Shown: positions 5,236 to 13,884, counted from the first letter of the stretch. The stretch is 59,369 bases of DNA from Chloroflexota bacterium (GCA_039714275.1 JBDLJO010000001.1:1-59369), one strand, 5' to 3'. The notes: a model not told the origin generated them from the letters alone. Numbers and translations: made by a program.

Positions 5236-6228
5236 ATGCAACAATCATCTATTCCTGTCCCAATTAAAAAAATCCTCATTGTTGAAGATAACAAAGATGT
5301 TAGGAATGGCATTTCACAATATCTTAAAATTGAAAAGTATATTGTGTTGCAAGCAAGCAATGGTGTAGATGCACTAAAAGTCCTCGAAACTTTCACGCCC
5401 GATATTATTGTTTCCGACATAAATATGCCGCGCATGGACGGTATAGAACTTTATAAAGCTGTCCGCCAAAACCATCAATGGATAACGATTCCTTTTTTAT
5501 TTTTAACTGCAGATAATTCTCCGCAAAGCATTCGACTTGGACGCGAGTTGGGGGTTGAAGATTACCTGACTAAACCTATCCGCCCTAAGGATTTAGTAAA
5601 TACTATCAGCGCTCGATTACTGCGCTCTGCCGAAGTGGAGGTTGCACACATAGGCTTAGCATACCTCGAAACTGTAAAAGTGCTAGCTAATGCTATTGAA
5701 GGACGCGATAAGTACACCCGCGGGCACGTTGACCGTGTCACGCATTATGCACTCGGCACAGCAGAAGAATTGCATTGGACTCCAAGCCAAATCCGCACTC
5801 TCGAATTTGGTGCTCGCTTACATGATATTGGAAAAGTAATTATTCCCGATAGTATTCTTAACAAAAAATCTAAATTGACTTCGGAAGAATGGGAGTTAAT
5901 GAAGCAGCACCCAGTTGAGGGTGTAAAAATACTTGAGGGCATAACCCATTTGCAAAAAACGAGGCCCTACATTCTCTACCACCATGAACGTTGGGATGGT
6001 AGTGGATACCCGCATGGTTTAAAAGGACAAGACATCCCTATAGAGGCAAGACTTCTAGCAATTGCAGATGTTTACGATGCTCTGACAACTGCACGCCCCT
6101 ATCACCCCCCTCGTCCTTATTCAGAAGTAATAAAATACTTAACGCTAAGTGCTGGCACACACTTTGATCCTGAATTAGTCCCGATTTTCATAAAAGTCAT
6201 AAAAAGAAATCCACCATCAAGTATCTAA
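5236..6228 (+). CDS. response regulator with HD-GYP output domain (RpfG-like c-di-GMP phosphodiesterase)
   Basis: N-terminal receiver (KILIVEDN, PDIIVSDINMP, LTKP). C-terminal HD-GYP motifs (HDIGK, HHERWDGSGYPHGL). Confidence 0.85.
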   Translation: MQQSSIPVPIKKILIVEDNKDVRNGISQYLKIEKYIVLQASNGVDALKVLETFTPDIIVSDINMPRMDGIELYKAVRQNHQWITIPFLFLTADNSPQSIRLGRELGVEDYLTKPIRPKDLVNTISARLLRSAEVEVAHIGLAYLETVKVLANAIEGRDKYTRGHVDRVTHYALGTAEELHWTPSQIRTLEFGARLHDIGKVIIPDSILNKKSKLTSEEWELMKQHPVEGVKILEGITHLQKTRPYILYHHERWDGSGYPHGLKGQDIPIEARLLAIADVYDALTTARPYHPPRPYSEVIKYLTLSAGTHFDPELVPIFIKVIKRNPPSSI

Positions 6229-12761: not shown

Positions 12762-12798
12762 TTAAGAGCCCCCTTAAGAGCCTAAAAGATGTCATAAT
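12762..12798 (+). promoter_or_regulatory. direct-repeat operator candidate (2 x TTAAGAGCC, 12-nt period) followed by an extended -10 (TGTCATAAT)
   Basis: TTAAGAGCC occurs at 12762-12770 and 12774-12782. TGTCATAAT lies at 12790-12798. No good -35 hexamer is present. The site is 50 nt upstream of ATG 12848 and directly downstream of the SARP-type regulator gene. Confidence 0.4.
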
Positions 12799-12994: not shown

Positions 12995-13576
12995 TTGATC
13001 TTACTTTTAGCCATTTTTGTTGGTGTTGCAGCTGGTATAGCCAGATCATGGATTGGAGACCAACCCTATTCTCCACCCGCATTTCAGGTAGTTTGGTTGC
13101 TGCTGATTGCAACATTTCCTCAAATTCTTGTTTTTCATCTGCCATACACTTCGAAATTGATCCCCAACCAATTTGCGCCAACGATTCTGGTCGGATCCCA
13201 AATCCTACTCCTAATATTCGTTTGGTTCAATCGTCATCTTCCCGGCATGGCCATTTTAGGGATCGGTCTCATTGCTAACTTTCTTGTAATTAGCATAAAT
13301 GGAGGACTAATGCCAATCAGTCCTGAAACCATTCAACAACTTCTACCCAAAGCTACAATTAATTCTTCACTTTTTTATACCCGCTTAGGGTCAAGCAAAG
13401 ATATCTTACTTCCAATTTCAGAAACTAAAATGTGGTGGTTTTCAGATCGTTTTCTATTACCTTCCCAGTTTCCTTTCGGTGCAGCATTCAGCTTTGGTGA
13501 TATTTTCGTAGCCATCGGTACATTTTGGATGCTTTGGTCACAAGGAAAACCACTTATACAACCACAAATTTCATAA
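12995..13576 (+). CDS. DUF5317-like integral membrane protein
   Basis: 193 aa with TTG start and about 6 TM segments. Motifs NGGLMPIS and FSFGDIFVAIGTFWML resemble the DUF5317 family as I recall it. Confidence 0.55.
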   Translation: MILLLAIFVGVAAGIARSWIGDQPYSPPAFQVVWLLLIATFPQILVFHLPYTSKLIPNQFAPTILVGSQILLLIFVWFNRHLPGMAILGIGLIANFLVISINGGLMPISPETIQQLLPKATINSSLFYTRLGSSKDILLPISETKMWWFSDRFLLPSQFPFGAAFSFGDIFVAIGTFWMLWSQGKPLIQPQIS

Positions 13577-13590
13577 AGGAGCTTTATCAC

Positions 13591-13884
13591 ATGAACGCCT
13601 TTACATCCACAGCTATGATGTCTCCATATCCATATCAAAACAAAATGCATGATATCCCGAATGGAAGAGATTTAAGCCGGTTGCTTACTGCAGCAGTAGT
13701 TAATAAAACCTTCCGAATGAAATTGTTAGCGGATCCAAAAAGCGCTTTACTGGCTGGTTACAATGGAGAACCGTTCTCACTAAAAAATGAAGATAAAGAT
13801 CTGATTTTATCAATTCGTGCATCATCATTATCAGAATTTGCTGCACAATTATCAAATCACAAGCATCAAAATCAAGACCTTTAA
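13591..13884 (+). CDS. 97-aa small protein with an NHLP (nitrile-hydratase leader peptide)-like helix region; resembles the Os1348-type NHLP-clan proteins
   Basis: AAGGAG SD lies 8 nt before ATG 13591; the longer ORF-track start at 13525 overlaps the DUF5317 gene. Core LLTAAVVNKTFRMKLLADPKSALLAGYNGEPFSL matches the NHLP-leader pattern (aromatic/F-R-x-x-LL-x-DP-x-x-AL). No Cys-rich core and no GG cleavage motif. Confidence 0.5.
   Translation: MNAFTSTAMMSPYPYQNKMHDIPNGRDLSRLLTAAVVNKTFRMKLLADPKSALLAGYNGEPFSLKNEDKDLILSIRASSLSEFAAQLSNHKHQNQDL

Follow-up and report, generated by a model that had tools for sequence, protein, structure and literature searches.

Introduction

Small proteins of the nitrile hydratase-like leader peptide (NHLP) clan are treated by genome-mining pipelines and annotation models as precursors of peptides that are made on ribosomes and modified after translation (RiPPs). 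The subject of this paper is a 97-residue protein of this clan, encoded in a 59,369-nucleotide stretch of DNA from a Chloroflexota bacterium (GCA_039714275.1 JBDLJO010000001.1:1-59369; this whole stretch is called the window in what follows), together with the conserved group of genes to which it belongs. The closest relative to have been studied is Os1348 from Pseudomonas sp. Os17 (PDB 6LK7), a protein of 85 residues and six helices that forms a dimer in the crystal; its gene precedes genes of the GNAT, HExxH and SagB types and affects antibiotic activity (PMC7726476). An earlier reading, made from the sequence of the window without database searches and referred to here as the sequence-only reading, had proposed that in the window protein the leader-like fold might have been co-opted as a binding partner for a neighbouring protein, rather than serving as a RiPP precursor. 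It is argued below that such a role, within a signalling cassette of the Anaerolineae, is the probable one.

Circuits in which a regulator is paired with a small peptide or protein are known from the RRNPP family (PlcR-PapR, Rgg-SHP), from MalT with MalK, MalY and Aes, and from AfsR-AfsS. On the structural side, the “LigA-like” group of the ECOD classification contains Frankia_peptide, Nif11, NHase_alpha, ComX, DurB, LigA and the N-terminal domain of TglI, and several of these (LigA, TglI) are protein-binding regulatory subunits and not substrates (PMC12353581). The window protein, or the cassette as a whole, shares something with each of these groups, and the comparison is taken up again at the end.

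Family membership and fold

The reading frame extends from an ATG at 13591 to a TAA at 13882–13884, and is preceded, 9 nt before the ATG, by a Shine-Dalgarno sequence AAGGAG (13576–13581). This sequence overlaps the stop codon of the upstream gene, which encodes a membrane protein of family DUF5317, in that codon's final base. A longer alternative frame would begin from TTG 13525; the two nearest homologues, P0002 (MNAVTT..) and P0003 (MNVLTS..), are 97 residues long each and start where the Met of the window protein does. This is a real gene. In its product the first 24 residues are disordered, residues 25–94 make up a core of five helices (25–37, 39–47, 49–55, 66–74 and 80–94 in the AlphaFold2 model), and a 10-residue tail, SNHKHQNQDL, follows the last conserved helix.

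Among NCBIfam models the top match is NF038399 (Os1348 family NHLP clan protein), with E=3.8e-7 and 30.1 bits over model positions 2–59 of 63 (29.9 bits when the whole genome was scanned with this model; curated cut-off 40 bits), while among Pfam models it is PF14407, Frankia_peptide (28.2 bits, E=2.4e-6; gathering threshold 48 bits), which is also the family given for the protein in the precomputed annotation of the protein collection. Frankia_peptide was reportedly defined by Iyer et al. in 2009. The canonical NHLP leader model, TIGR03793 (cut-off 50.9 bits), gives no match to the window protein at E<=1, and matches some of its relatives weakly, at 13–21 bits. Of the two models by which the sequence-only reading had proposed to check its assignment, the Os1348-family model thus responded, if below its cut-off, and the leader model did not.

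A first search yielded 46 homologues of 80–143 residues at 90% clustering. With an exhaustive profile search the family grew to 827 clusters (50% identity, E<=1e-3), and of the 150 best among them almost all are stand-alone proteins of 77–160 residues. The N-terminal heads and C-terminal tails of the family cannot be aligned; between them, 60 residues form a conserved core in which 21 positions are invariant, ELSRLLTAAVVNxxFxxLLLxNPxxALxxGYNGExFxLxxEExxLILSIxAxSLxEFAxQL. When species-representative genomes were scanned with a pattern, 38 proved to contain the close family, and every one of these is annotated as Chloroflexota of Anaerolineae type (Anaerolineales, Brevefilum, Levilinea and Anaerolinea). 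The family profile, A1, also retrieves shorter Anaerolineae relatives that have no GYNGE insert, and three of these divergent proteins exceed the NF038399 cut-off, with 42.7, 46.1 and 78.9 bits. The last of them matches Os1348 (6LK7) with E=0.0045 over residues 6–66, and gives a weak match to the LigA-like domain in gallate dioxygenase as well. That these intermediates pass the cut-off and reach 6LK7 establishes homology to genuine members of NF038399, and on this comparison of profiles the window protein is best placed in the Os1348/Frankia_peptide branch of the NHLP clan, of which it is a diverged member.

When the family profile was run against the sequences of the PDB it did not reach 6LK7, and its sole match was a weak one (E=1.7), to the alpha subunit of nitrile hydratase (2zcf), in which LLtAAvvnreFrklLLtnpasALea.GY...NGE of the profile is aligned with LVARAWTDPEFRQLLLTDGTAAVAQyGYlgpNGE. 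A Foldseek search of the PDB with the AlphaFold2 model gave no significant match; the best local superpositions, themselves non-significant and confined to the three-helix core, were with the leader of a proteusin precursor (8tb1; 30 columns, root-mean-square deviation (rmsd) 0.9) and with nitrile hydratase alpha (2ahj; 29 columns, rmsd 0.5). The leader-like motif that had been read from the sequence is present, and the assignment to Os1348-type proteins of the NHLP clan holds, by way of matches below threshold together with intermediates above it.

A conserved cassette

The small gene had been described as an orphan, which it is not: it belongs to a conserved cassette, whose features in the window are collected in Table 1.

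Table 1 Features of the cassette in the window.
Feature	Position	Strand	Basis and remarks
MalT-like STAND ATPase with TPR sensor and C-terminal BTAD (SARP-type) domain, regulator, 1084 residues	9431–12685	+	Hidden Markov model (HMM) matches
Promoter region	12762–12798	+	TTAAGAGCC twice with a 12-nt period (12762–12770, 12774–12782), then extended -10 TGTCATAAT (12790–12798)
Tiny open reading frame (ORF), 47 residues	12848–12991	+	Basic N-terminus, one transmembrane helix, conserved C-terminal tail VGAP-GASGDFGL
DUF5317 polytopic membrane protein, 193 residues	12995–13576	+	PF17248, E=4.4e-33; starts 3 nt past the stop codon of the tiny ORF
NHLP-clan (Os1348/Frankia_peptide-like) small protein, 97 residues	13591–13884	+	ORF, HMM matches, homologues, AlphaFold2 model
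PAS/GAF-like sensor protein without output domain, 256 residues	13961–14731	+	Weak PAS and GAF Pfam matches

The order of regulator, tiny ORF, DUF5317 and small gene is the same as in L003, L008, L010 to L043 and L078 (labels of this kind denote loci). On metagenome contigs a MalT-like ATPase-TPR-BTAD regulator of about 1075 residues, an ORF of 52 residues, DUF5317, the small protein and a PAS-GAF-HD-GYP protein likewise follow one another in that order. At the 38 genome loci the regulator is found upstream wherever there is sufficient upstream sequence, the gene immediately preceding the small gene is DUF5317 in about 33, and a protein of HD_5 type with variable sensor domains comes next on the same strand in about 20; at loci of the Brevefilum type the small gene closes the operon, and nothing lies downstream on the same strand. 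The PAS-GAF protein, which the sequence-only reading had put forward as a possible partner, is accordingly no steady neighbour, since roughly half of the loci have an HD-GYP protein there and the Brevefilum-type loci nothing. The membrane protein, proposed as the other possible partner, fares better without being essential. In a sample of 301 genomes of the class, 100 have DUF5317 and 81 the small protein, and in 63 the two are found together. Of the 91 small-protein matches in this sample, 51 have a same-strand DUF5317 gene 9–372 nt upstream of them, and at 20 loci examined where DUF5317 is not adjacent the small gene still lies directly downstream of a STAND-BTAD homologue in 13, with a glycine-tailed tiny ORF upstream in at least 7. 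Of 20 DUF5317 genes without a detected small protein, 11 form pairs in which HD-GYP is followed by DUF5317 and from which regulator, tiny peptide and small protein are all missing, while those that do have the regulator mostly have a very divergent small protein as well, missed or nearly missed by the profile (L084, L099). Taken with the pairs, this co-occurrence means that the small protein goes with the regulator and with the tiny peptide (the latter left unconnected to the gene in the sequence-only reading), which are its constant companions; DUF5317 is a frequent but dispensable neighbour, and DUF5317 with HD-GYP is a module able to exist alone.

The regulator matches the MalT equivalog model over its N-terminal 420 residues (E=2.7e-67) and contains the Pfam domains TPR_12, TPR_MalT and BTAD (residues 941–1080); it is the presumed activator of the operon downstream. 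Exact direct repeats of 7–9 nt with a 12-nt period precede the tiny ORF in 10 of 28 other loci examined, and at most of the remainder near-repeats of (T/A)GAGCC or GAAGCC type, followed by a CATAAT or GATAAT -10 box, can be picked out by eye. There are two or three repeats per promoter, just upstream of the -10 box (e.g. L011, L021, L025, L035). Such an arrangement fits the site of a SARP-type activator, making binding by the regulator a putative assignment, and as the repeat sequence drifts between clades (TTAAGAGCC; TGAGCCTGTTT/TGAAGCC; TTTGATGCCTG), operator and regulator may co-evolve.

The tiny ORF is itself kept at almost all of the related loci: a basic N-terminus and one hydrophobic helix are followed by an invariant AGAP, to which usually 8–9 residues fitting PxxxGGxGx are added before the stop codon. 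In some loci that have no DUF5317 the helix of the tiny peptide is lost and the motif is multiplied: L024:7040-7900 and L034:7050-7950 (both +) contain five tandem mini-ORFs of 22 residues (MKQTIQKIAIFTSPASVGGFGG), each with its own ribosome-binding site, and L001:7666-7851 a single ORF with four in-frame [SA]PMSDGGLGH repeats. At L064 two tandem copies of a 41-residue tiny peptide lie upstream of the small gene. From its pattern of repetition the P-x3-GG-x-G tail seems to behave like a multiplied core or pheromone unit. As a separate observation, the gap between regulator and tiny ORF is about 1.2 kb in one Brevefilum locus (L033:5796-7030), as against some 0.2–0.4 kb elsewhere, possibly through an insertion.

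Fusions and topology

In one clade of the family the small domain is N-terminal and a receiver (REC) domain forms the C-terminal half of a single protein of 270–306 residues. Searching the protein collection produced 21 fusion clusters at 90% identity, made up of 20 (200–296 residues) in which the small domain is joined to REC and of P0051, a protein of 468 residues (11 member sequences) in which a single frame runs through DUF5317, small domain and REC. The N-terminal domain of the fusions is found by the family profile with E=7e-9 to 8e-16 (hmmsearch), and Pfam Response_reg scores 88–99 bits in the four that were scanned. As a REC domain cannot be a RiPP core, these fusions class the small domain with those modules that serve signal transduction as outputs or adaptors. 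At L078 the REC fusion takes the usual slot of the small gene in the cassette, after regulator, tiny ORF and DUF5317. Stand-alone REC genes directly follow the small gene at L053 and L065, and at L054 it is preceded by a response regulator and by a large upstream gene that probably encodes a kinase (the genes at these three loci were recognised from N-terminal sequence).

A fusion of the P0051 type also requires the C-terminus of DUF5317 to be cytoplasmic. Given this C-terminus and the positive-inside rule, the loop domain of DUF5317 (NGGxMP...R...SKD...LSD...SxGD) would be placed outside the membrane, on the same side as the tail of the tiny peptide, and the small protein would itself be cytoplasmic.

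Tails and maturation enzymes

Past the last conserved helix the tails of the family comprise 3–53 residues (median 23); they are basic, with R, G, S, N and K abundant and Cys at 0.2%, the shortest being that of P0015, in which only 3 residues remain. The window protein has no Cys and no Gly-Gly site, so that with its 10-residue tail the earlier statement that it has no core features is borne out. No modifying enzyme was found near the small gene in NCBIfam and Pfam scans of its neighbours, again as had been stated, and no maturase-like enzyme is constant across the approximately 100 contexts examined. The search could be extended to the organism's own assembly (2.97 Mb, 526 contigs, 85.7% complete), in which no YcaO, C39 peptidase, LanC-like or HExxH-domain protein was found; its sole SagB-type match (G000:C416:6-278, L101), a partial frame at the end of a 1.6-kb contig, reaches 42 bits against a cut-off of 78 and is probably an ordinary nitroreductase-fold protein. 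Profile searches of the same assembly found the small gene in single copy, with no paralogue, as the outcome of a check that had been proposed. The best-supported reading of these results is that the small protein is not matured into a peptide natural product.

Interpretation

It is proposed, as the probable explanation though one held with some reserve, that the small protein is a cytoplasmic helical docking module of NHLP/LigA-like type, acting as adaptor or output, in a conserved Anaerolineae signalling cassette. The MalT-like ATPase-TPR-BTAD regulator would activate the operon through the direct repeats, which occupy the position of a -35 box. From the operon would come the tiny membrane peptide, with its AGAP-x3-GG-x-G tail directed outward, and DUF5317, with its conserved loop domain on the same side as that tail. 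On the cytoplasmic side the small protein would dock near the C-terminus of DUF5317, or on soluble signalling proteins, or both, the candidates being a REC domain, HD-GYP, PAS-GAF and the TPR sensor of the regulator, and once docked it would relay or feed back the state of the peptide and membrane unit. As to which of these partners is the right one, the fusions to REC and to DUF5317 favour the membrane unit and two-component or cyclic di-GMP partners, while near-universal co-occurrence favours the regulator or the tiny peptide. The suggestion that the fold had been co-opted for binding is thus upheld, by members that are almost without tails, by the REC and DUF5317-REC fusions, and by the contexts examined, all of which are signalling ones that contain no maturase.

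However, several points weigh on the other side. The window protein falls under both curated cut-offs, NF038399 and PF14407, though its E-values are significant; its AlphaFold2 model is only moderately confident (predicted local distance difference test (pLDDT) 74), every structural match is non-significant, and 6LK7 is not among the Foldseek matches. It is itself a stand-alone protein without a REC domain, the DUF5317 fusion comes from one cluster only, on a 1.9-kb contig, and the gene downstream of it in the window is missing the HD-GYP output. Adjacency of regulator and small gene may reflect nothing beyond co-regulation, and it must be remembered that the related genomes entering the counts are non-independent samples. 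As the assembly is 85.7% complete, a distal maturase could have escaped, and the absences listed above are not proof. Finally, Os1348, the only relative to have been studied, is held by its authors to be a modified precursor, albeit without proof (PMC7726476).

The alternative that survives best, although on balance unlikely, is a narrower version of the adaptor reading and overlaps with it: the small protein would have the TPR sensor of the STAND regulator as its only partner and would modulate the regulator by feedback, DUF5317 and HD-GYP being passengers. Models for such an arrangement exist in the modulation of MalT by MalY, Aes and MalK and in the relation of AfsS to AfsR. The regulator is after all the most constant neighbour of the small gene (at all loci with enough upstream sequence, and at 13 of the 20 examined at which DUF5317 is not adjacent), the operon bears its presumed direct-repeat operator, and one might speculate that basic tails such as RKRPFV and ARKFS could be TPR ligands. 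Yet at the other 7 of those 20 loci the small protein is present without a detectable STAND homologue, in some cases beside REC genes; the fusions join the domain to REC and DUF5317, not to the regulator; and co-regulation would explain the co-occurrence equally well.

Rather less likely is the possibility that the tiny ORF encodes the true product and that the NHLP-like protein binds it as a chaperone or trans-acting leader, presenting it either to DUF5317 for export or processing or to the TPR sensor of the regulator, so that leader and core would be split between two genes. This would account for the co-occurrence of tiny peptide and small protein at nearly all loci and for the fact that both are missing from the HD-GYP-DUF5317 pairs, and also for a peptide motif multiplied in the manner of a RiPP core or pheromone (L024, L034, L001, L064); moreover, LigA-like domains are present in RiPP-binding proteins such as TglI (PMC12353581). 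The difficulty is that the predicted topology, derived from the REC fusion and the positive-inside rule, separates an outward-facing peptide tail from a cytoplasmic small protein. In addition, no modifying enzyme is conserved in the cassette, and the REC fusions fit a signalling output domain better than they do a chaperone.

A further form of the split-gene idea, to be regarded as doubtful and ranked behind the trans-acting leader, would make the cassette a so far undescribed peptide-signalling system of the Chloroflexota in which leader and core are split over two genes, the glycine-tailed micropeptide, in places multiplied into tandem mini-genes or in-frame repeats, being the signal or substrate and the NHLP-fold protein its dedicated intracellular recognition module. 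That module would then couple the handling of the peptide by DUF5317 to the MalT/SARP-type regulator and to cyclic di-GMP or two-component outputs.

A conventional RiPP precursor, in which an NHLP-type leader and a variable tail as core are served by an enzyme that is distal or has gone unrecognised (DUF5317, perhaps, or else the HD-domain protein), has in its favour clan-level homology to NHLP leaders and to Os1348, with its GNAT/HExxH/SagB cluster and effect on antibiotic activity, and tails as hypervariable as RiPP cores, but is very improbable given tails of as few as 3 residues with virtually no Cys and no Gly-Gly site, a REC domain filling the “core” position in one clade, a single-copy gene in a genome where YcaO, LanC, C39 and HExxH were not found and the SagB-type match is partial at 42 bits, and a cassette in which no enzyme is constant.

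DUF5317 and the downstream gene

The AlphaFold2 model of DUF5317 (pLDDT 91.6) has five transmembrane helices and a structured loop domain. Its invariant residues are N102, G104, M106, P107, R130, D151, S166, G168 and D169, and the polar ones among them cluster in the part predicted to face outward. Neither Foldseek nor a sequence profile identified a relative in the PDB. The invariant LSD and SxGD raised the idea of a GxGD-type intramembrane aspartyl protease, which, there being no PDB relative, stays speculative. A second and simpler module, with HD-GYP directly before or overlapping DUF5317, was seen at L081, L082, L085, L087, L091-L095, L097 and L098, and suggests that HD-GYP enzymes may have in DUF5317 a membrane partner independent of the rest of the cassette.

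The PAS/GAF-like gene that follows the small gene in the window is probably the last of the operon, and no terminator is predicted between 13884 and 13961. Over 240 residues its product is 27% identical (E=1e-26) to the N-terminal sensor part of a PAS-GAF-HD-GYP protein of 683 residues (L006:341-2392), which follows the small gene at that locus. That the HD-GYP part is present in the window as a broken gene was considered and rejected, as there is no remnant downstream of 14731; judged by this alignment, the PAS/GAF-like protein of the window appears to have lost its HD-GYP output without remnant. An RpfG-type REC-HD-GYP response regulator is encoded 7 kb upstream (5236–6228, +) as a gene separate from the cassette, with two minus-strand genes in between, one of them transporter-like in appearance.

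An anti-phage defence system was also considered, and set aside: of the five proteins PADLOC matched the regulator alone, and that one through generic TPR matches only. In the literature, no paper was found that describes the cassette or DUF5317, and searches on NHLP with response regulator and Chloroflexi yielded nothing relevant.

Significance

A large clade of NHLP-clan proteins (the 827 clusters at 50% identity) has no core, lies without maturases nearby, and repeatedly has receiver, HD-GYP and STAND-regulator genes as fusion partners or neighbours; such genes ought to be left out of counts of biosynthetic potential, and the clade points to a second life of the leader fold as a signalling module. 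If the split-gene reading were true, the NHLP “leader” fold would have changed in evolution from a tag on a substrate to a receptor or adaptor in signalling. The cassette also helps to define a conserved, unpublished unit in the Anaerolineae, an abundant and poorly cultured group, in which it may be the first peptide-linked regulatory circuit to be recognised. For reconstitution it offers as parts a regulator, a direct-repeat operator, a micropeptide, a membrane protein without known fold, and an adaptor.

Comparison with known systems

Like the window protein, Os1348 is small, all-helical and stand-alone, belongs to the same clan and has no Cys-rich core, and it crystallises as a folded dimer rather than being a floppy leader. 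The window protein differs from it in having the GYNGE insert, in falling below the NF038399 cut-off, and in its neighbours, which are a STAND regulator, a tiny peptide, DUF5317 and a PAS-GAF protein in place of the GNAT, HExxH and SagB genes beside Os1348. With NHLP leaders and proteusin precursors (TIGR03793; 8tb1, solved by nuclear magnetic resonance) and with the N-terminus of nitrile hydratase alpha, it shares the pattern F-R-x-x-L-L-x-(D/N)-P-x-x-A in the first three helices. In contrast to the leaders, it gives no TIGR03793 match; a Gly-Gly site and a Cys/Ser/Thr-rich core are absent from it, as are a maturase and a C39 transporter from its surroundings and genome, and two extra conserved helices complete a small domain. 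The three-helix core is common to the LigA-like X-group of ECOD, in which the existence of LigA and TglI as binding subunits matches the adaptor reading, although none of the members listed is described with a receiver fusion or in a STAND-regulator cassette (PMC12353581).

As regards the cassette as a whole, it resembles the RRNPP, MalT and AfsR circuits in that a TPR regulator stands beside a short peptide gene with a conserved C-terminal tail, and in that the regulator may receive feedback from small proteins whose genes lie next to its own. It departs from them in combining a MalT-type ATPase with a SARP (BTAD) output and in the conserved Gly-rich tail of its peptide. DUF5317 and the NHLP-like protein have no counterpart in the RRNPP, MalT or AfsR-AfsS systems.

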